The notes under the pieces are model-generated. The model did no database searches, had not been told where the DNA came from, and saw only the letters and a program-made list of their open reading frames with translations. This document shows positions 4,129 through 37,455 of a stretch of DNA of 64,000 nucleotides, piece after piece (positions within the stretch are counted from its first letter, which is position 1; every line of letters starts with the position of its first letter). Location of the stretch: the NCBI GenBank assembly GCA_900551105.1, contig URUT01000001.1, forward strand, positions 857 to 64,856, read 5' to 3'. A program made the position numbers and the translations under genes. This DNA is from an uncultured Mycoplasmatota bacterium (GTDB lineage Bacteria; Bacillota_I; Bacilli_A; RF39; UBA660).

Positions 4129-4821
4129 TTAAATCTTTTTATTCTTAATAAATTCCCTAAAAATCTTAGTAATAGCTCTTTTTTCTATTCTAGAAACATA
4201 ACTTCTAGATATTTTCATTTCTTTACTAATTTCTTTTTGAGTCATTTCTCTAGTATTATATAAGCCATATCTTTTAATTATTATTTCTTTTTCTCTTTTA
4301 GATAAAGTATCTAAATATTTAAGTAGCAAATCTATTTTATTTTGAGTATCAATCATATCAGCAATATCTTCATTATCACATTTTAAAACATCAATTAAAT
4401 TTATTTCATTACCATCTTTATCAAAACCAATTGAATCATTTAAACTTACATTATTTAAATGCTTCTTATTACTTCTATAATGCATTAAGATTTCATTTTC
4501 AATACATCTAGCAGCATAAGTTGTAAGTCTCGTATTTTTACTTGGTTTATACGAATCAATTCCTTTTACTAAGCCTATTGTACCAATGCTTATTAAATCA
4601 TCTTGTAAATATTCGTTGTTTTCATATTTTTTTACAATGTGCGCAACTAATCTTAAATTATGCTCAATAAGTTTATTTCTTGCATCTTTATCCCCAAGTA
4701 GCATCTTTCTAGTGGCTTCTTCTTCATCAGTTTTATTTAGTGGCTGAGGAAAAACATTAATTGAATAAGAACCTGTAAAAAACATTAGGCCTTTTAACAA
4801 ACTAATTAAATATAACATCAA
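4129..4821 (-). CDS. sigK: RNA polymerase sporulation sigma factor pro-sigma-K, intact (no skin-like interruption)
   Basis: Hydrophobic pro-sequence ending ...NVFPQPL, then KLIEHNLRLVAHIVKKY, DLISIGTIGLVKGIDSY and TYAARCIENEILMHYRS. These are near-identical to B. subtilis SigK (FPQPL; LIEHNLRLVAHIVKKF; ATYAARCIENEILMH). Confidence 0.85.
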   Translation of the reverse strand: MMLYLISLLKGLMFFTGSYSINVFPQPLNKTDEEEATRKMLLGDKDARNKLIEHNLRLVAHIVKKYENNEYLQDDLISIGTIGLVKGIDSYKPSKNTRLTTYAARCIENEILMHYRSNKKHLNNVSLNDSIGFDKDGNEINLIDVLKCDNEDIADMIDTQNKIDLLLKYLDTLSKREKEIIIKRYGLYNTREMTQKEISKEMKISRSYVSRIEKRAITKIFREFIKNKKI

Positions 4822-26967: not shown

Positions 26968-27123
26968 AAGTCAATTATAACGCAAATAAGCAATTTTTCG
27001 CAAGATAAAGTACTGACTGTTGTTTAATTAGCAATACATATTTAACAAACTGTTGGAAAACATACAAAAAGCATAATTTTTATGTGTTATTTTTATTAAG
27101 TTGATAATAAAATGATTAACGAG

Positions 27124-30100
27124 GTGAGAAAAATGGATAAACTATCCGAGTTTATAACCAAAAAGAGTAAATTAATATTAATTTTATCTTTAATTCTTTT
27201 AGGTTTTTCTTTTATTGGTATGAAGCTTACAAAAATCAACTACGATATTCTAGTATATCTTCCTGATGACATTGAAACCATTAAAGGTCAAAACATTTTA
27301 ACAGATGACTTTTCTATGGGGTCTTATTCCATCGCAGTCATTGAAAATGCTAGTCCAAAAGAAATTCTTAATATAGAAGAAAAGATCAAGAAAGTAGATG
27401 GCGTAAACGAAGTTGCATCTATCTATGATGTCTTTGGAACTAATATTCCGTTAGAAATACTTCCAGAAGATGTTCTAGAAAAAGTTCATAATGACAACAC
27501 AGACTTACTAATCGTAACTTTCAAAGATTCAACATCAAATGAAAACACTATAAGTGCTGTTGAAGAAATTAGAAACCTAACAAACGATAACTATAAGTTT
27601 GGTGGTATGAGTTCTATGGTATTAGATACTATGAATCTGTCTGAAAAAGAAATAGCTGTTTATGTAACAATTGCTGTAATTCTTTGTTTAATAGTCTTAG
27701 AGCTATCACTTGATTCATACTTAGTACCAGTCTTATTACTATTAAATATCGGTATGGCTATTGTCTATAACTTAGGAACAAACATCTTCCTAGGGGAAAT
27801 ATCTTATATAACCAAAGCTTTAGTAGCTGTCCTACAATTAGGTGTTACCACAGACTTCTCAATATTCTTATATCATGCTTATGAGAAAAATAAAAAAACT
27901 GATTCTAAAGAAATTGCCATGAAAAAAGCCATCAAAGAAACCATTGTTTCCGTAATTGGTTCATCAACCACAACCATCGCTGGCTTCCTTGTTTTATGTA
28001 CAATGAGCCTAACTCTAGGTAAAGATTTAGGAATTGTTATGGCCAAAGGTGTTGCTCTAGGCGTTATTACCGTACTAACTGTTTTCCCAGCACTTTTATT
28101 ATTCTTTGATAAACAAATAGCGAGAACTAGTCATAAAGTACTAACACCAAAATTTGATAAAATAAACAAACAAATAGTAAAACATCATAAACTAATCTTT
28201 ATTATATTTTTAATATTATTAGTTCCTGCATATCTTGCAAACTCTAAAGTAGAAGTTTACTACAAAATAGATAAAACCTTACCCGAAACCTTAGAAAGCA
28301 TCACTGCAAATACTATTTTAAAAGAAAAATACAATATTGTAAGTCCTGAAATGATTATTACAAGTAAAGACTTAAAAACTAATGATATTAAAAATATGGT
28401 TAGAGAAATTAAACAAATTGATGGCATCGATTTTGTACTTTCTAAAAGTGATTTTGATGACTTAGGAATAAGCTCTAACATGCTACCAAGTGAAATAAGC
28501 TCACTATTTGAAAGTGAAAATTATCAAATGTTCCTAGTAAACTCCACTTACGAAGTTGCAAGTGATGAGTTAAATGAACAAGTAGTAAAAGTTAATGACA
28601 TCGTAAAAAAATACGACAAAAATGGTATTGTAGCTGGTGAAGGTCCACTAATGAAAGACCTAATAAATATTAGTGATACAGACTTTAATAATGTTAATAC
28701 CTCATCAATTGTTTGTATCTTCGTAATACTATTTATTGTCCTAAAATCATTTAGTTTGCCATTCTTATTAATTCTAGCTATTGAATTTGCAATCTGCGCA
28801 AATATGGGAATATCTTACTTTAGCGGTAAGGTCTTACCATTTGTCGCACCAATCGTATTAGGAACAATTCAGCTAGGAGCAACTATTGACTATGCAATTT
28901 TAATGACTACAACTTATTTAGAAAAACGAAAAACTCAAAGAAAAGAAGATGCTGTTTTAGCTACGCTTAACCAGTGTGGATCATCAGTATTTGTAAGTGG
29001 TCTATGCTTCTTTGCAGCAACATTTGGCGTCGGCGTTTATTCTCAGCTAGAAATGGTTGGTTCTCTGTGTACATTAATAAGTAGAGGAGCCCTATTAAGT
29101 ATGCTTGTTGTAATAACTGTCTTACCATCAATTCTTCTTATCTTTGATAAAATTATACAAAAAACAAATATTGGAAAGGAAAAAATTATGAAAAATAAAA
29201 AATTAGCTTTATGCTCACTAATAGCATTATCAATCCCTCTAAACACCTTTGCACTTACCAAAAACGAAACTGTCTATAACAAACTATATCCAGATGGCAC
29301 CATCAAAACCTCTTTTGTAAATGAAGAGTTATTAAATACTTCTAATTTAAAAGAAATAAACGATGTTACATCACTAGAAGATATTATCAACTTAAGTGGT
29401 AATGAAACATTTACTAAAACAAACGATAAACTAACTTGGAATGCATCAGGCAACAATATTTTCTATCAAGGTAAAACAACAAAAAAAGAACCAATATCAT
29501 TTAAAGTAACTTATAAACTAGATGGTCAGGATATTTTACTAAAAGACTTACTTGGCAAAAGTGGTAAAGTAGAGATAAAAATAGAATACACTAATAACTC
29601 TAAAAAGAGTGTAAAAATAAATAATAATTATGAAACTATGTATACACCATTTGTTGTGCTTACTAGTATTTCTTTAAACAATGACTGTAAAAACATCAGT
29701 ATCACTAACGGAAAAATAATTAATAATGGAACGGGTAATGTAGCCTTTGCCATCGCTAGTCCAAATTTATCAGACAGCCTAAATATTAATAGTCTAAATA
29801 CTTTAAATAAAACCGTAATAACTTACGATACAACTAAATTTGAATTAGGAACTATTTATAGTGTGATTACCCCAAAGCTATTAAATAGTAGTGATTTATC
29901 AAAATTAAATAATATAACTGGTGTTAACAGTAAACTAGCCGAACTAACTGAAAATGTTAATAAAATAGAAAACGGTAGTACCGATTTAAAAGATGGAAGT
30001 ATCAAACTAAATACTAATGTTAAAAAGTTAAGCGATGCTCTAACAAGCTTAGATGAAAATGTAACGGCTTTAAAAAATGGTAGTGTAGACATAGATAATG

Positions 30101-30894
30101 GAGTAGGCCAAGTAATAGAAAACATTAATAACATCAAACTATTATTACCAGATAATACTAAAAGCATTACTAAAATGAATGACTTAATTGCTGCAAATAA
30201 TAACACTATCAATAATCTAAGTGCACTAAATAGTACTATTAAAGAAAAATACGATAGTGCCAATTTAAAAGAATTATCTTATGAACTAATCTTAGGAAAT
30301 GATTCTTTAGATAATAATACTAAAATAACCTTAATTAACTTAAAAAGCGAATATGAAAACCACTATGATAGTAATAATCAGTTAATCAGCCTATTAAAAT
30401 TAAACGTTTCTGCTCTAGAAAGTAACATTAAAGAATTAGAAAGCTTAAGTGCTAAAGTAACCCAAATGTTACCAAAGATGGAAGCAGGCATCAGTAAACT
30501 TAAAACTGGTACTACTAGTTTAAGCACTAATATGGCAAAACTAAATGTTGCAACTAACGAGTTAAATATCAAAGGAAAAACATTAGTAATTGGCACAACT
30601 AATTTAGAAGAAGGTTTAAAAACTTTAAACGAAGGAATAACAATGTTAAATAATGAAGCTATCAAACCTATCACTAACAAAATAACTAATGAATTAATTC
30701 CTATGACAACTAGAGTAAAAGAACTAACAAAACTAGGGGAAAATTACACATCATTTGCTGGCAGTAATGTAACCGGCGAAACTAAATTCATCTATGTAAT
30801 CGACGGTGAAAAAGTTAAGGAAGAAAAAAATTCCACAGAAGAAAAGACTGAAAAAGACAATCTTTGGACAAGAATCAAAAATTTATTCAAATAG
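27124..30894 (+). CDS. MMPL-family membrane transporter fused in frame to a YhgE/Pip-like extracellular coiled-coil domain
   Basis: Two MMPL/SSD-type TM bundles in the first 700 aa. An internal signal-peptide-like segment (MKNKKLALCSLIALSIPLNTFA, at about nt 29188) has its own RBS but no preceding stop codon. A roughly 560-aa ectodomain with heptad-repeat coiled coils follows (LNTNVKKLSDALTSLDENVTALKNGSVDIDNG...). Confidence 0.6.
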   Translation: MRKMDKLSEFITKKSKLILILSLILLGFSFIGMKLTKINYDILVYLPDDIETIKGQNILTDDFSMGSYSIAVIENASPKEILNIEEKIKKVDGVNEVASIYDVFGTNIPLEILPEDVLEKVHNDNTDLLIVTFKDSTSNENTISAVEEIRNLTNDNYKFGGMSSMVLDTMNLSEKEIAVYVTIAVILCLIVLELSLDSYLVPVLLLLNIGMAIVYNLGTNIFLGEISYITKALVAVLQLGVTTDFSIFLYHAYEKNKKTDSKEIAMKKAIKETIVSVIGSSTTTIAGFLVLCTMSLTLGKDLGIVMAKGVALGVITVLTVFPALLLFFDKQIARTSHKVLTPKFDKINKQIVKHHKLIFIIFLILLVPAYLANSKVEVYYKIDKTLPETLESITANTILKEKYNIVSPEMIITSKDLKTNDIKNMVREIKQIDGIDFVLSKSDFDDLGISSNMLPSEISSLFESENYQMFLVNSTYEVASDELNEQVVKVNDIVKKYDKNGIVAGEGPLMKDLINISDTDFNNVNTSSIVCIFVILFIVLKSFSLPFLLILAIEFAICANMGISYFSGKVLPFVAPIVLGTIQLGATIDYAILMTTTYLEKRKTQRKEDAVLATLNQCGSSVFVSGLCFFAATFGVGVYSQLEMVGSLCTLISRGALLSMLVVITVLPSILLIFDKIIQKTNIGKEKIMKNKKLALCSLIALSIPLNTFALTKNETVYNKLYPDGTIKTSFVNEELLNTSNLKEINDVTSLEDIINLSGNETFTKTNDKLTWNASGNNIFYQGKTTKKEPISFKVTYKLDGQDILLKDLLGKSGKVEIKIEYTNNSKKSVKINNNYETMYTPFVVLTSISLNNDCKNISITNGKIINNGTGNVAFAIASPNLSDSLNINSLNTLNKTVITYDTTKFELGTIYSVITPKLLNSSDLSKLNNITGVNSKLAELTENVNKIENGSTDLKDGSIKLNTNVKKLSDALTSLDENVTALKNGSVDIDNGVGQVIENINNIKLLLPDNTKSITKMNDLIAANNNTINNLSALNSTIKEKYDSANLKELSYELILGNDSLDNNTKITLINLKSEYENHYDSNNQLISLLKLNVSALESNIKELESLSAKVTQMLPKMEAGISKLKTGTTSLSTNMAKLNVATNELNIKGKTLVIGTTNLEEGLKTLNEGITMLNNEAIKPITNKITNELIPMTTRVKELTKLGENYTSFAGSNVTGETKFIYVIDGEKVKEEKNSTEEKTEKDNLWTRIKNLFK

Positions 30895-30921
30895 AAATGT
30901 GCTAAATAAGGCACATTTTTT
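30895..30921 (+). terminator. intrinsic terminator
   Basis: Stem AAATGTGC / GCACATTT with an 8-nt loop, then TTTT. Confidence 0.6.
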
Positions 30922-30950
30922 GAGTAAATTGTGGTAAAACGGAAAATTTT

Positions 30951-31015
30951 AGAGGTAACTTCTCACGCGAGTTTTCCACACTCCCAGTTGACACGGGGGG
31001 GGGTTGTTATATAAT
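30951..31015 (+). promoter_or_regulatory. promoter of paralog A with a poly-G spacer (candidate phase-variation switch), preceded by an inverted-repeat operator-like site
   Basis: Inverted repeat AGAGGT-A-ACTTCT (30951-30963). The -35 is TTGACA (30988-30993), the 16-nt spacer is c+G9+ttgtta with G9 at 30995-31003, and the -10 is TATAAT (31010-31015). The pseudogene copy at 36767-36826 keeps the palindrome (AGAAGT-A-ACTTCT) and TATAAT but has only G4 and a degraded -35. Confidence 0.55.
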
Positions 31016-31038
31016 AAAAGAAGAAAATAGGTGGTAAA

Positions 31039-32727
31039 GTGAAAAATAAAAGTGTATCACTCGTTCTTCTTTTGAGTGTATTCGTAGTTATAGCTGGTGT
31101 CATATTTTTAAAAAATTATGAAAGTGAAACTTTAGTAGAAGCTAAATGGAACGAAAAAGAAGACGCACTTTTGGCAATAACCATTGATGGCAAAGAATCT
31201 GATAGCTTTCCAACTAACTCTGGATATGTCGGTACAGTAACATGTAATAATGCTACAGGTACTACATCTTGGAATGGAAGTAAATGGGTATTTAATGTAA
31301 CTGGTATTACCAAAAATAAAACAAGATGTAATGTAGCATTTATTAAAAGCCAGGCTCTAAAACTTGCAATACTAGGAGAAAATAATGCTAACCTTAGCAC
31401 AACTATTACAGTTCCAGGAAGGGATGTAAACGCATATAAATTAGAAGACGCTGAAACGAAAACAAAAGAATTATCTACTAGTTATCAAAATTACTATTAT
31501 ACATATGGTACTGGCTGGCAAGCAAATGGTATAAATTTCACTCTTACTGGTACAGCTGTAACTAACAGCACTTATGCTACTTCTTACGAAACCCTAAAAG
31601 GTAAGTACACACTTTCATTTAGTGAAACAACATCGTCTTCACCAACCCCGGTAGACACTAGTGAAACAAATTGTATTAATTATATCATAGATACAACCCC
31701 AACCACTATAACATACAAAGAATTATGTTCAAATAAGAACCAAACTGAAGCAGTTCTTGCTAGTACCCAAGATGACTACGGAACATCTTATTACTACAGG
31801 GGAGCAATAACAAATAACTATGTTCAGTATGCAAATATGTGCTGGAGAATAGTAAGAATTACTGGCAATGATGCTGTTAAGCTGGTCTTACATAACTATA
31901 ATGGATTAACAGATTCAAACACTACTCCAACAAGTCAAACACCATGCAGTGTAGTAGGAGATGAACTAAGTTATGCCAGATTTGAAGGCGATACATTTAC
32001 TACATCTTTTAATAGTGACATGGATGATAACGCATTTGTCGGCTTAAAATATGGAACGAAATCCTCATCAAGTTACGCAGCAACTCATGCAAACACCAAC
32101 GCAAGCGCAATTCTTCAAGCTTTATGGAAATGGTACGATAATGTTTTATCTAAACAATCAGGATTTAATGAAAATAATCTAGTTGATACCATTGTTTGTA
32201 ACGATAAAAAAGTAATAACTAATACTACATTTAATCCATATGATATGGGCTTAGGAACCAGTTACGGCTACAAAAAAAATTCAAATTATTATGGTGCTAT
32301 GCCAAGATTTCTAAACAATGATGGATCATCTTATGGAACTGGTCCAAGCCTAGTATGCCAAACTGATAACAACGGTGGAAAACTATCAAAATTTACCTAC
32401 AGCGATACAACAAAAGGAAATGGTACTCTAGGCCGTAAAATCGGATTATTAACCGCAGACGAAATAACATTTGCAGGAGCACAATATGGTAGTGGAAAAG
32501 CACCGAGAGATTACTTAAATGAAAACGATAAGTACGGAATGTGGACATCAACTCCAGGATACGTAAATACCTATGGAACGCCTGCCAATATTATGGTGTG
32601 GGGAAACGGTGGCCTTGGTTCTACGCCAGTTGTTCAGCCGTGGGGCGTAAGACCAACAATATCTATACCATCATCAACTAAAGTAGGTGGAAATGGAACG
32701 GCTGATGACCCATATATTGTTCAGTAA
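31039..32727 (+). CDS. secreted / signal-anchored protein, paralog family member A
   Basis: GTG start after RBS AGGTGG. N-terminal signal-anchor MKNKSVSLVLLLSVFVVIAGVIFL and conserved N-terminal module TLVEAKWNEKEDALLAITIDGKESDSFPT...TCN..TG..SWNGSKW in a 562-aa ORF. The conserved C-terminal tail is GVRPTISIPSSTKVGGNGTADDPYIVQ. Confidence 0.7.
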   Translation: MKNKSVSLVLLLSVFVVIAGVIFLKNYESETLVEAKWNEKEDALLAITIDGKESDSFPTNSGYVGTVTCNNATGTTSWNGSKWVFNVTGITKNKTRCNVAFIKSQALKLAILGENNANLSTTITVPGRDVNAYKLEDAETKTKELSTSYQNYYYTYGTGWQANGINFTLTGTAVTNSTYATSYETLKGKYTLSFSETTSSSPTPVDTSETNCINYIIDTTPTTITYKELCSNKNQTEAVLASTQDDYGTSYYYRGAITNNYVQYANMCWRIVRITGNDAVKLVLHNYNGLTDSNTTPTSQTPCSVVGDELSYARFEGDTFTTSFNSDMDDNAFVGLKYGTKSSSSYAATHANTNASAILQALWKWYDNVLSKQSGFNENNLVDTIVCNDKKVITNTTFNPYDMGLGTSYGYKKNSNYYGAMPRFLNNDGSSYGTGPSLVCQTDNNGGKLSKFTYSDTTKGNGTLGRKIGLLTADEITFAGAQYGSGKAPRDYLNENDKYGMWTSTPGYVNTYGTPANIMVWGNGGLGSTPVVQPWGVRPTISIPSSTKVGGNGTADDPYIVQ

Positions 32728-35084: not shown

Positions 35085-35192
35085 CACCCACTAAAAATTA
35101 AAACCCCATTACAAAAAAATAATGGAGTTTTTATAATTTAGATTGTCTTGACTAATAACCTAAATTTGTTATAGAATATACATAGAAAATAG

Positions 35193-36644
35193 GTGATATC
35201 AGTGAATAACAAATATAAAGGATTAAGTATTATCTTAATATTGTTAGTATTAACATTTATCGGTTATAATGCCTTAAAACAAGAAGAATTAAAAGAAGCA
35301 ACTTGGGAAAAACCAGAAGAAATATTAGCAATCACAATAAATGGCGAAGAAGCCACATCTTTTCCAACCACGGCAGCATACGAAGCTAGTGTAACTTGTA
35401 CAAGTGGCACTGGTAGTGCTTCATGGAATGGAAGCAAGTGGACATTCAATGCAAGTTCAATTTCCAAAAACAAAGCAAAATGCAACATAGACTTTATTCC
35501 CAAAACTCTTAGATCTTATATTTTGGGTGACAATAACGCCAACGTTGGAACTGTAAAAACAACACCAGGAGCCTCAAATAACTCAACATCAGAAGCAGTT
35601 TTAGCATCAACTCAAGATGATTATGGAACAAGTTATTATTTTAGAGGAGTTGTAACTAAAAATTTTGTTGTGTACGCAAATATGTGCTGGCGTGTAGTAA
35701 GAATTACAGGCGACGGTTCAGTAAGATTAGTATTATATAATTATAATGGATTAACAAGTGATAATACGACACCATCTGCTAGTAATCCCTGCAGTGTTAC
35801 TGGTGATGAACTAGCCTTCATTCATGATAGCAGTGGGACCTCAATGGTTAGATTTGGAATATATGGAGATAATGCTGGCTTTGGTTTAATGTATGGTGAT
35901 GTTGGATGCTCTGATGGCACATCATATGATAAAACAAGTTGCTCAAATAATAGCGGTACGTGGACAACATCAACCTCGTATGCAAATGCTCATAGCAACA
36001 TTAGAAAAAGTACGGTTTTACAAAGTTTAGAAAGTTGGTACGATGATGTTTTGTCTAAACAGCCAGGCTTTAGTGAAAAACAACTAGCAGATACTATTTT
36101 ATGCAATGATAAAAGCGTTATAACAGACAGCTCATTTAATCCAGCAGGATGGACAACTTTTCCAAGTGATTATGGAATTGGAACAAATAACAATCATTAT
36201 GCAAGCATTAAAAGACTTGTAACATCAAGCTCCATGAAAGCTGGTGGCACCGGACCAAGCCTAATATGTCCTAATGATAACTTAGGCGGAAAATTATCTA
36301 AATTTACAGTAAGCGATACCGTCAACGGGAATGGTGCCTTAGATAAAAAAATTGGTCTCTTAACAGTTGATGAATCAGCATTTGCTGGAGGAATATATGG
36401 AGCTTATAATTCGTCTTACTATCTTTATCAAAATGCAAAAGAAGCATATTGGTTAGCTACTCCAGGAATATTTTTTAATCCTTCTAATAATCACTGGGTT
36501 GCATATAACTCTACTGCTAACGGACACTATTTATATGTTGTACTTAATGTCAATGTTTACGCAATCCGACCATCAATTACTCTGGATAAAAATACAGCAT
36601 CAACTGGTAGTGGAACATCATCAGATCCTTATGTTGTTAAATAA
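35193..36644 (+). CDS. secreted / signal-anchored protein, paralog family member B
   Basis: Same architecture as 31039 in a 483-aa ORF, with conserved blocks TWEKPEEILAITINGEEATSFPT, SWNGSKWTF and YGTSYYFRGVVT.NFV.YANMCWRVVRITGDG, and tail AIRPSITLDKNTASTGSGTSSDPYVVK. GTG start at 35193 or 35202. Confidence 0.7.
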   Translation: MISVNNKYKGLSIILILLVLTFIGYNALKQEELKEATWEKPEEILAITINGEEATSFPTTAAYEASVTCTSGTGSASWNGSKWTFNASSISKNKAKCNIDFIPKTLRSYILGDNNANVGTVKTTPGASNNSTSEAVLASTQDDYGTSYYFRGVVTKNFVVYANMCWRVVRITGDGSVRLVLYNYNGLTSDNTTPSASNPCSVTGDELAFIHDSSGTSMVRFGIYGDNAGFGLMYGDVGCSDGTSYDKTSCSNNSGTWTTSTSYANAHSNIRKSTVLQSLESWYDDVLSKQPGFSEKQLADTILCNDKSVITDSSFNPAGWTTFPSDYGIGTNNNHYASIKRLVTSSSMKAGGTGPSLICPNDNLGGKLSKFTVSDTVNGNGALDKKIGLLTVDESAFAGGIYGAYNSSYYLYQNAKEAYWLATPGIFFNPSNNHWVAYNSTANGHYLYVVLNVNVYAIRPSITLDKNTASTGSGTSSDPYVVK

Positions 36645-36720: not shown

Positions 36721-36849
36721 ATTTTGCTTAAAGAAAAAAAGAACTTACGGCAAATGCAAAATTTCTAGAAGTAACTTCTCGGTAAGTTTTCACACTTTAG
36801 GTGGAAACGGGGAGTTGCTATATAATGAAAGAAGAAAATAGGTGGTAAA

Positions 36850-37455
36850 ATGAAAAATAAAAGCTTATCAATCATTCTTCTTTTGAGTGTGTTCGTAGTA
36901 ATAACTAGTGTTATTTTCTTAAAAAAATATATTAGTGAAACTTTAGTAGAAGCCAAATGGAACGAAAAAGAGGACGCCATGTTAGCAATTACAATAAATG
37001 GTGAAGAAGTAGATAGTTTTCCAACTACGGCAGGATATGTAGGTAAAGTTACTTGCACAAAGGGAACAGGAAGTGCTTCCTGGAACGGTACCAAGTGATT
37101 ATTTAGCGTAACAAGTATTACCAAAAATAAAACTAGATGTAATATAGATTTCAGCGTGCCAACACTAAGAGAGGCAATTTTAAATGCAAATGCTATATCA
37201 TCTCCTTCAACAACGCCAGGAACTAAAGCCTCAGCATCTACAGAAAGCATATTAGCAAGTGCTTCTGATGATTATGGAACGAACTATTATTTTAGAGGAG
37301 TAGTTACTAATAACTATGTAGAATATGCCAATATGTGCTTTCGAATCATAAGAATTACTGGAAACGGTGCAGTTAAATTAACATTATATAATTATAATGG
37401 ACTAACAGATAGTAATACAGTGCCAAGCAGCACTACACCTTGTAATGTAACTTAG
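36850..37455 (+). pseudogene. degenerate paralog family member C: in-frame TGA replaces a conserved Trp codon, and the reading frame ends early
   Basis: One reading frame runs 36850-37455. The conserved SKW (TGG) of copies A and B is TGA at 37096-37098 here (GTK*LFSVT). Beyond it the frame still encodes family blocks (YGTNYYFRGVVTNNYVEYANMCFRIIRITGNGAVKLTLYNYNGLTDSN), then stops at PCNVT, where A and B continue for more than 250 aa. Its promoter is degraded (see 30951 feature). Confidence 0.65.

Follow-up and report, generated by a model that had tools for sequence, protein, structure and literature searches.

A length-variable poly-G tract in the promoter spacer of a predicted surface protein gene as a probable expression switch in an uncultured gut bacterium

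The window, that is, the whole stretch of DNA that was analysed, comprises 64 kb from an uncultured low-GC bacterium of the human gut, and a run of nine G residues lies within it between the −35 and −10 hexamers of a promoter. The question raised by this locus is whether the run is an inert part of the promoter or a repeat that slips at replication and so alters the expression of the gene behind it, here termed gene A. The gene and the elements around its start are as follows:

27112-30894 and 30893-30924, + strand: upstream MMPL gene and, directly after its stop codon, a hairpin with a T run that resembles an intrinsic terminator (30893-30924)
30970-30981, + strand: upstream box AGTTTTCCACAC, marking the left limit of the segment retained with the promoter where the upstream DNA has been replaced
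30988-30993, + strand: −35 hexamer TTGACA, read from the sequence and kept in the module across paralogs
30994, + strand: C, first base of the spacer, read from the sequence
30995-31003, + strand: poly-G tract (G9), a candidate hypermutable simple-sequence repeat within the 16-nt spacer 30994-31009
31004-31009, + strand: TTGTTA, 3′ part of the spacer, read from the sequence
31010-31015, + strand: −10 hexamer TATAAT, read from the sequence
31029-31034, + strand: ribosome-binding site AGGTGG, 4 nt 5′ of the GTG start
31039-32727, + strand: gene A, GTG start, 562 aa, the putatively regulated gene

Direct reading of 30988-31015 gives TTGACA-c-G9-ttgtta-TATAAT. The hexamers agree with the consensus at 12 of 12 positions and are separated by 16 nt, the spacing given in the preliminary description. 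This is the sole 12/12 hexamer match among 48 promoter-like sites between 30 and 38 kb of the window, and it lies 23 nt upstream of the ribosome-binding site and GTG start. The sequence suggests that it is the active promoter of gene A, with transcription probably starting at about 31022-31023. The terminator-like hairpin, which has an 11-bp stem and a folding energy of −11.8 kcal/mol (z = −3.8, with 0 of 200 shuffles equally stable), appears to separate transcription of gene A from that of the MMPL gene. The box AGTTTTCCACAC is kept in three rearranged copies of the locus (L011, L012 and L018), which carry unrelated DNA further upstream, and also in L050, at a different paralog; it is possibly an UP-like or activator site. 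In the rearranged loci L011 and L012, the ORFs upstream had no Pfam match, and an Rfam scan of the whole window returned two tRNAs and no match at the promoter locus. The G tract ends 35 nt before the start codon and the 5′ coding region of gene A is free of repeats. Translational phase variation through a coding repeat, of the Neisseria opa CTCTT type, was rejected as the tract is outside the reading frame.

The run is as unusual in its surroundings as had been described. The G+C content of the window is about 30%, and G/C runs of 3, 4, 5 and 6 nt occur 243, 51, 7 and 3 times, respectively, followed by a single run of 9, which is the only one longer than 6 nt across the 64 kb. Shuffled sequences are expected to hold 0.4 runs of at least seven G residues; all three overlapping matches that were observed are the G9 tract itself. 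The length of the run is far above chance in the window.

The product of gene A is predicted to be a surface protein, with an N-terminal hydrophobic anchor, a CTLD/DUF6273-type domain, fast divergence and presence/absence polymorphism. From the N-terminus, a membrane anchor is followed by a small beta domain, a variable middle and a C-terminal domain of 330 aa, which structure modelling predicts to be C-type-lectin-like, DUF6273-type and extracellular. Gene A had no match in Pfam, NCBIfam or the sequences of the PDB, and DUF6273 (Pfam PF19789) was weakly matched by 4 of 24 relatives and not by gene A itself. A full-length model built from 24 sequences was unusable (pLDDT 49); that of the C-terminal domain, built from 83 sequences, was usable, and a Foldseek search against the PDB gave no significant match, with the top matches all being CTLDs. 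C-type-lectin-like/DUF6273 domains have been described in the literature (PMC12237041, PMC12402451). One such domain forms the N-terminal part of the Thomasclavelia ramosa IgA peptidase (PDB 9qa6), whereas gene A has neither a peptidase domain nor an HExxH motif. The gene A protein diverges faster than its neighbours and the gene is missing from one strain. The organism uses the standard code, in which TGA is a stop codon.

The preliminary description proposed that the spacer tract varies in length through slipped-strand mispairing, and the comparison of tract length across strains that it had suggested as a check supports this reading. At the same locus in 28 assemblies, the tract is G9 in 21, G10 in six and G11 in one; at paralogous loci it ranges from G8 to G11. 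All of these lengths come from short-read metagenome assemblies, some of which may share source samples. The overall distribution is G9 > G10 >> G8 and G11, and the lengths partly group by lineage (L024, L026 and L028, for example, are all G10). In two sets of 4.7-kb loci with an identical encoded protein, no internal indel occurs other than at the tract; the four to six A/T runs of 7-8 nt in those alignments are invariant. One locus with G11 differs from one with G9 by a single SNP (L014 and L016), and one with G10 is separated from one with G9 by no SNP at all (L024 and L027). Tract length is the fastest-changing character of the gene A locus, ahead of substitutions.

The same promoter recurs elsewhere in the family. 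The module TTGACAC-G(8-11)-TTGTTA-TAnAnT is also found ahead of four or more further paralog lineages of related gut species, where both the upstream DNA and the 5′UTRs differ. Its length varies at these paralogs as well, with G9, G10 and G11 found in L057-L065 and L088, and the flanks of the tract, TTGACAC and TTGTTA, are conserved as strongly as the hexamers. Across the 736 kb made up of the window and the fetched loci, 45 of 45 G/C runs of at least 8 nt are within the module and in one constant orientation to the gene. The repeat is confined to a single family member on each of the contigs examined, the promoters of the remaining members being fixed. The module had no match in the viral contigs of IMG/VR, so it is not phage-borne in that collection.

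Two relatives of gene A and an upstream palindrome lie in the same window and provide a local comparison:

35148-36644, + strand: paralog B (gene 35193-36644), with a repeat-free promoter TTGACT-18-TAGAAT at 35148-35177, a fixed-promoter comparison in the same genome
36767-37464, + strand: pseudogene C, a decayed promoter copy and truncated 5′ gene copy, with an ATG at 36850 and an in-frame TGA at 37096-37098
30951-30963, strand not applicable: imperfect palindrome AGAGGT-A-ACTTCT, a proposed operator that is unsupported as a functional part

The promoter of paralog B is unrelated to that of gene A, and upstream of pseudogene C (36767-36826) the promoter has decayed, both as first described. 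The latter copy consists of a perfect palindrome AGAAGT-A-ACTTCT (36767-36779), a G tract shortened to G4 (36809-36812) and an intact TATAAT (36821-36826), with GTGGAA in place of the −35 hexamer. The palindrome upstream of gene A had been placed 25 nt before the −35 hexamer; it is present, and the true distance is 24 nt. Its interpretation as the site of a dimeric regulator did not hold. Palindromes of this 6-1-6 form with at most one mismatch occur 0.9 times per 100 nt of the window, and AGAGGT-A-ACTTCT is therefore no more than expected by chance. Its half-sites drift without compensation among strains (AGAGGG.., AGCGGT..), and it is missing in the three rearranged locus copies and in all paralogous modules that keep the promoter. 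The palindrome was rejected as an operator, being at chance frequency and not conserved with the promoter.

The promoters that have no repeat are informative on spacing. Repeat-bearing promoters have spacers of 15-18 nt, and the repeat-free promoters of the family have spacers of 17 nt (21 distinct) or 18 nt (five). Derivatives that have lost the repeat are all at 17 nt, and include an AT-rich allele at the nifU locus, G3(TG)5 in L029-32 and the interrupted sequence CCGGGTGGGTGG in L078 and L092. The same species also has a fully AT-rich 17-nt spacer at the same locus, in L033-37, L045 and L047, and the repeat-free allele is invariant among five assemblies. As the repeat-lost derivatives all settle at 17 nt, it can be argued that spacing matters. 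With 17 nt, and in a few cases 18 nt, being the lengths of the fixed and repeat-lost promoters, G10 is probably the full ON state and the G9 of the window lies one step away from it.

The reading that best fits these findings is that the G9 run is probably a hypermutable repeat in the spacer of a sigma-A/sigma-70-type promoter and serves as a slippage-driven switch of gene A expression. Slipped-strand mispairing at replication, the presumed mutational mechanism, would gain or lose single G residues. The spacer would measure n+7 nt, that is, 15 nt for G8, 16 for G9, 17 for G10 and 18 for G11. The number of G residues would in this way shift both the spacing of the −35 and −10 hexamers and their relative helical phase and alter the transcription of gene A. 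The sequence suggests a direction and a size for this effect: expression is most likely full ON with a 17-nt spacer (G10), lower with 16 or 18 nt and close to OFF with 15 nt. The G9 copy of the window would then be down-shifted, and the insertion of one G would restore it. With perfect hexamers, spacers of 16, 17 and 18 nt may give graded output as opposed to a strict ON/OFF response. The module would govern some, but not all, paralogs of the surface-protein family in several related gut species. Length switching would presumably take place within a single population, and the outcome would be that a fast-evolving, dispensable surface protein is heterogeneous in a heritable yet reversible way, with a presumed selective benefit. 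The predominance of G9 (16 nt) is odd if a 17-nt spacing is the preferred ON state. It may reflect, by analogy with C. jejuni, a mutational bias toward G9, or else selection for low expression.

Sigma-70-type promoters with perfect hexamers usually tolerate spacers of 16-18 nt. The tract could be a neutral hotspot, which slips with no selected regulatory role and is kept by descent, the promoter being about equally active at 15-18 nt or the gene being driven otherwise. G9-G11 would give only the tolerated spacers of 16-18 nt, and the predominance of G9 is expected from mutational bias alone (PMC8355987). However, an unselected run of G9-G11 should erode at 30% GC, and it does erode in pseudogene C and in L078 and L092. 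In the module it has instead stayed at exactly the same site, in five or more paralog lineages and in several species, although both flanks diverge, and a neutral hotspot accounts poorly for the confinement of all 45 long G runs to the module or for the common 17-nt spacing of the derivatives that have lost the repeat. This explanation is considered unlikely.

It is also quite improbable that the G run is chiefly a recognition or structural element, either the site of a regulator that binds G tracts or a rigid spacer governing promoter strength, with its variation in length being incidental. Conservation of the TTGACAC and TTGTTA flanks at the level of the hexamers would agree with such a role, as would the conserved box AGTTTTCCACA that accompanies some copies of the module. 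The existence at the same locus of AT-rich 17-nt spacers and of G3(TG)5 indicates, however, that no specific contact with the G tract is required. Furthermore, there is no linked candidate regulator gene, and the tract varies in length but not in sequence.

A very unlikely explanation is that a single true length exists and that G9, G10 and G11 are homopolymer errors of the assemblers. Homopolymer calls in short-read drafts are error-prone and need caution (PMC4577077). Certain contigs have a coverage of only about 3-10x, and several end at or near the tract, namely L020, L022, L074 and seven of seven Logan contigs. The Logan contigs all begin 4-10 nt past the tract, with breaks within 31007-31029; in the one sample with both sides, the left contig crosses G9 and ends at 31029, and the right contig begins at 31013. 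These breaks were considered as a sign of length heterogeneity within samples and were counted neither way, since they fall beside the tract and not at the position that such heterogeneity predicts. Against an artefact, non-modal lengths make up about a quarter to half of the calls, from two assembler types and contigs at 17-41x coverage, which far exceeds the consensus error rates for runs of 9-11 nt. The grouping of lengths by lineage in places, the constancy of the A/T runs in the same alignments and the invariance of the repeat-free allele also argue against it.

The weakest alternative, a site-specific inversion of the promoter or its exchange with pseudogene C, could draw on a 10-nt perfect inverted repeat around the ribosome-binding site and start codon (31016-25 and 31064-73), on the silent 5′ copy C with its homologous promoter 5.8 kb downstream and on the Logan breaks at 31007-31029, but it is scarcely credible and was rejected as none of about 35 contigs is inverted, chimeric or otherwise arranged in its support, no inverted repeats surround the promoter 30988-31015 itself, no recombinase gene is adjacent and the breaks lie off the repeat arms.

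The proposed slippage switch has counterparts among known systems. The promoter repeat of M. hyorhinis vlp is a poly-A tract, and in Bordetella pertussis fim a poly-C tract separates an activator site from the −10 hexamer. The preliminary description had compared gene A with the ON/OFF promoter-spacer switches of Neisseria opa/fim-like systems. The promoter-spacer type is retained, but not the opa analogy, since opa carries a coding CTCTT repeat; Bordetella fim is a looser parallel. Closer analogues are porA/opc, H. influenzae hifA/B and M. hyorhinis vlp, and more loosely Bordetella fim; the porA poly-G, the hifA/B (TA)n and the vlp repeats are all promoter repeats (PMC3899988). In porA/opc, a change of one nucleotide alters spacer length and transcript level (PMC3899988). 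The architecture at gene A matches that of Neisseria meningitidis porA (poly-G) and opc (poly-C), surface-protein genes whose −35 and −10 hexamers are likewise separated by a spacer with a G/C homopolymer of some 9-11 nt. They belong to a beta-proteobacterial pathogen, whereas gene A belongs to a Gram-positive-type or wall-less lineage. The product here is an unrelated CTLD/DUF6273 protein, and an identical module is reused on several paralogs and in several species.

The vlp genes, described together with other mollicute promoter-repeat systems (PMC3899988, PMC11868660), resemble the gene A family as a multigene family of variable surface proteins, in a low-GC organism related to Bacilli/Mollicutes, with a homopolymer in a conserved promoter. 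In vlp this permits independent (combinatorial) switching of the members; the gene A paralogs share a conserved promoter module. The two differ in the base of the tract (poly-A in vlp and poly-G here), in their products (lipoproteins with repetitive C-termini as opposed to membrane-anchored CTLD proteins), in the single repeat-bearing member per contig examined, with the rest fixed, and in the use of TGA as a stop codon here. The G tracts of C. jejuni (30% GC) have mutation rates of 1e-4 to 1.6e-3 per division and are mostly constrained to G9-G10 (PMC8355987), a length distribution also observed here. Its poly-G/C loci share with gene A a gut-associated genome of about 30% GC, in which G/C runs of 8-11 nt are rare, hypermutable and mainly G9-G10. 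Most C. jejuni tracts lie inside reading frames and cause ON/OFF frameshifts, with a minority intergenic, whereas all those seen here are in promoter spacers. In hif and Bordetella fim, which are genes for surface appendages, a change in repeat number shifts the distance between promoter elements (PMC3899988). The G3(TG)5 allele in L029-32 is a dinucleotide version, comparable to the (TA)n of hifA/hifB, within the same spacer; hif is a bidirectional promoter pair, whereas the gene A promoter is single and unidirectional with a consensus −35. The type of switch is known (porA/opc, hifAB, vlp), and the lineage and gene family are new.

Phase variation in the gut microbiota is known mainly from DNA inversions in Bacteroides and relatives, such as invertible promoters, and from methyltransferases. 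Repeat-driven promoter switches are textbook knowledge in mucosal pathogens, including Neisseria, Haemophilus, Campylobacter and the mycoplasmas. A literature search found no such switch in the uncultured lineages of low GC content that commonly inhabit the human gut. It is tentatively proposed, with slightly less than even confidence, that the poly-G promoter is a conserved, portable switch module of about 30 nt (TTGACAC-Gn-TTGTTA-TAnAnT). It would have been kept on, or recombined onto, different paralogs of a very large, fast-diversifying C-type-lectin-like surface family across several abundant uncultured Bacilli/Mollicutes-like species of the human gut, with hypermutable alleles coexisting in populations, at the same loci, with alleles “locked” at 17 nt (AT-rich, (TG)5 or interrupted). 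If true, this would be the first repeat-in-promoter system of phase variation described in prevalent gut commensals, as far as the literature search shows.

If the switch is a working one, metagenome pipelines may be prone to systematic breaks and mis-calls at such loci. Existing read archives would allow a direct test, as the module is short, conserved and easily searched. These commensals would stochastically vary a lectin-like surface protein, which would bear on their interactions with IgA, phages and host glycans and on the persistence of strains.

Direct reading of positions 30988-31015 gives TTGACA c GGGGGGGGG ttgtta TATAAT, and a promoter-site scan bore out the 16-nt spacer proposed for the two hexamers in the preliminary description. 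A 12/12 hexamer match is unique to this promoter of gene A among 48 promoter-like sites between 30 and 38 kb. Its surroundings fit a promoter, with a terminator upstream and AGGTGG and a GTG codon downstream. The relevant features, including those of paralog B and pseudogene C, are:

27112-30894: MMPL-family gene upstream of gene A, ending in the hairpin
30893-30924: intrinsic-terminator-like hairpin followed by T's (-11.8 kcal/mol, z = -3.8)
31029-31034: AGGTGG, 13 nt past the -10
31039-32727: gene A, 562-aa ORF, GTG start at 31039
35193-36644: paralog B, promoter TTGACT-18-TAGAAT
36767-36826: promoter remnant of pseudogene C, with palindrome and TATAAT kept, G4 and no -35
36850: ATG of the pseudogene C reading frame, which has an in-frame TGA at 37096-37098

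The window has a G+C content of ~30%. Its G/C runs of 3, 4, 5 and 6 nt number 243, 51, 7 and 3, beyond which there is one run of 9, and 0.4 runs of at least 7 G are expected in the shuffled window. The run-length counts and this expectation indicate that the G9 tract is real and not a chance occurrence, and that it was rightly called exceptional in AT-rich DNA. The unrelated promoter ascribed to paralog B and the decayed copy C, with its palindrome, TATAAT, G4 and ruined -35, were likewise recovered from the sequence. Within the window the family is limited to A, B and C. The truncating TGA of pseudogene C replaces a Trp codon (TGG) conserved in A and B, a simple G-to-A nonsense change; the remaining window is in the standard bacterial code, its long ORFs reading in code 11.

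Two further elements lie around the gene A promoter. A box, AGTTTTCCACA(C/T), at 30970-30981 is placed 6-10 nt upstream of the -35 and is also present in the loci L011, L012, L018 and L050; it is kept with the promoter where DNA further upstream is replaced, and is found beside a different paralog in another species. A perfect 10-nt inverted repeat, AAAAGAAGAA / TTCTTCTTTT (31016-31025 / 31064-31073), encloses the RBS, start codon and first 8 codons of gene A; most of its left arm precedes the inferred transcription start.

Exact-protein look-ups, made with gene A alleles and with neighbours, retrieved the same locus from public assemblies. The flanking genes are 98-99.6% identical to those of the window, which places these loci in the same species. 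After contigs fetched twice were dropped, 21 contigs had a G9 tract, 6 had G10 and 1 had G11, and 4 more had G3(TG)5 in place of poly-G. Two sets of 4.7-kb loci, comprising 4 and 6 contigs with 42-44 variable sites and encoding the same gene A protein within each set, served as an indel control. The G tract was the sole internal indel in both sets; the A/T runs of 7-8 nt in these alignments, four to six in number, showed no change. A single SNP in 4.7 kb separates L014 (G11) from L016 (G9), and none separates L024 (G10) from L027 (G9). Tract length is uncoupled from substitutions, and since it is the sole internal indel and differs between loci 0-1 SNP apart, the tract is the fastest-changing character of the locus. 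The strain comparison suggested earlier has therefore revealed length differences.

Homopolymer calls from short reads require caution (PMC4577077). Consensus error is an unlikely source of these differences, as non-modal calls make up at least one quarter, come from two assembler types and have coverage of up to 41x. Contigs ending at or near the tract comprise 7/7 from Logan, one low-coverage SPAdes contig and L074, and one MEGAHIT contig begins inside the G run. The Logan contigs (k=31) all break just past the tract, at the equivalent of 31007-31029 (L003-5, L010, L017, L019, L021, L119). In SRR28454985, the sole sample with both Logan sides, the contigs share only 17 nt (31013-31029), so the break adjoins the tract, and such breaks were counted neither for nor against heterogeneity.

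At E < 1e-5 the gene A family numbers more than 2600 proteins, every one of them from an uncultured gut bacterium. A family-alignment scan of human-gut metagenome contigs gave 80 loci, from which the DNA upstream of start codons was extracted. The module (AAC)TTGACAC-Gn-TTGTTA-TA(T/A/G)A(A/C)T, in which n is 8-11, is found in front of at least four further paralog lineages (L044/L046, L050, L054/L097, L057-L065 with L088, L079, L113), which have unrelated upstream DNA and three 5'UTR types. In the MNQKLRSYKK paralog the tract is again G9, G10 or G11. The window and 129 loci together make up 736 kb, in which each of the 45 G/C runs of at least 8 belongs to the module, always on the coding strand of the gene. 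Two of these failed to match the strict pattern, solely owing to a point change in the -10 (L026) or to the end of the contig (L119). Contigs with several family genes carry the repeat on one gene only, for example on L063 and not on L070, L071 or L106 in OGDF01000002, and on L079 and not on L081 or L117. The poly-G promoter is a recurrent module and not a single-locus feature.

A 22-nt sequence, CTCTCAGTTGTCTACTTTAAGT, is shared by L011 (1352-1373), L012 (1907-1928) and L065 (20-41). It stands ~60 nt before the -35 in two distinct poly-G promoters, each from a different species, where it takes the place of the usual upstream DNA; the ORFs upstream have no Pfam match. L018, with the promoter of L011 and L012, instead has an rve-family transposase upstream. 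A mobile element may be landing beside poly-G promoters.

Repeat-free family promoters have a 17-nt spacer in 21 distinct cases and 18 nt in 5; the tie-break favoured 17, most picks being unambiguous. Repeat-bearing promoters range from 15 to 18 nt, with a mode of 16. Module derivatives without the repeat are all fixed at 17 nt. These are an AT-rich allele downstream of nifU, TTGAAT-AATAAATATTATTGTTA-TAAAAT (invariant in five assemblies), an interrupted tract, CCGGGTGGGTGG, in L078/L092, and the G3(TG)5 allele of the gene A locus. The AT-rich and poly-G alleles occupy the same nifU-downstream site in conspecific strains (flanks 95-98% identical). L029-L032 (~1448-1478, equivalent to 30988-31015) read TTGACG-C-GGG(TG)5-TTA-TATAAT as against G9(TG)2, 4/4 with the same length; the putative switch would here exist in a dinucleotide-repeat or "locked" form. 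Read most simply, these spacers suggest that 17 nt, or G10 in the configuration of the window, would be fully active, with the G9 of the window one step down. In Campylobacter jejuni, mutational bias holds tracts "mainly to G9 and G10", at rates of 1e-4 to 1.6e-3 per division (PMC8355987); module tracts too are G9 first, then G10.

The gene A product has an N-terminal hydrophobic anchor and no Pfam, NCBIfam or PDB sequence match, and its full-length structure model is poor. Its C-terminal domain was compared with the N-terminal domain of the Thomasclavelia ramosa IgA peptidase, a C-type-lectin-like domain described as enlarged and of unknown function (PMC12237041) and annotated as DUF6273 (PMC12402451). 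Matches lower in rank were the Legionella Lcl C-terminal domain, T. denticola variable protein 1 and then many C-type lectins; DUF6273 weakly matches 4 of 24 family members. Five proteins (P0011, P0013, P0016, P0047, P0052) have long N-termini with an extra domain of ~130 aa, one such member weakly matching Peptidase_M73 (camelysin/TasA-like; E = 3e-5). Between strains, gene A is 90-94% identical and its neighbours 98-99.6%. The family gene at the nifU locus is only 67-76% identical between strains whose nifS/nifU flanks are 95-98% identical (compared within one sister species: L033, L044-L047, L076, L099), which makes the site a hotspot of allele replacement or diversification. One conspecific strain, L125 (ERZ27241985 k141_105316, 2080-2205), cleanly lacks gene A together with its promoter, the MMPL terminator there joining directly to the LemA upstream region. 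Paralog B is absent from two strains, L121 and L127 (~4480-4600), where argS follows the DUF2207 gene. The product is dispensable, fast-diversifying, lectin-like and presumably surface-exposed, which is typical of contingency-locus cargo.

An invertible promoter was rejected, there being no flanking inverted repeats and no inverted arrangement in ~35 contigs. The palindrome at 30951-30963, proposed as a dimeric regulator site, is not supported as one: its class occurs at 0.9 per 100 nt in the window, its half-sites drift (AGAGGG.., AGCGGT..) without compensation between strains, and it is missing from three rearranged copies of the locus and all other modules. The analogy with opa is also not apt, because the opa repeat is coding. 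The gene A tract, a promoter-spacer homopolymer, resembles porA/opc (PMC3899988), the promoter shared across a family recalls mycoplasma vlp, and the tract statistics are those of Campylobacter. Four of the six defining features of a promoter-spacer contingency locus are present; the remaining two, switching inside a clone and dependence of expression on tract length, are predicted. In anatomy and behaviour, the gene A promoter is a putative member of the porA/opc group of homopolymer contingency loci.

Exact or near-exact proteins occur in human-gut MAGs labelled "Tenericutes bacterium", "Mycoplasmatota bacterium", "Bacilli bacterium" or "bacterium"; many of the samples were taken in non-industrial cohorts, the Hadza among them. 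Literature searches, of incomplete coverage, found no such system described in these gut lineages. The poly-G promoter is mechanistically unsurprising. As an example of phase variation driven by a repeat in uncultured commensals that are prevalent, it would be well supported and immediately testable, and the recurrent, portable module with its alternative locked alleles adds to the single-locus finding.
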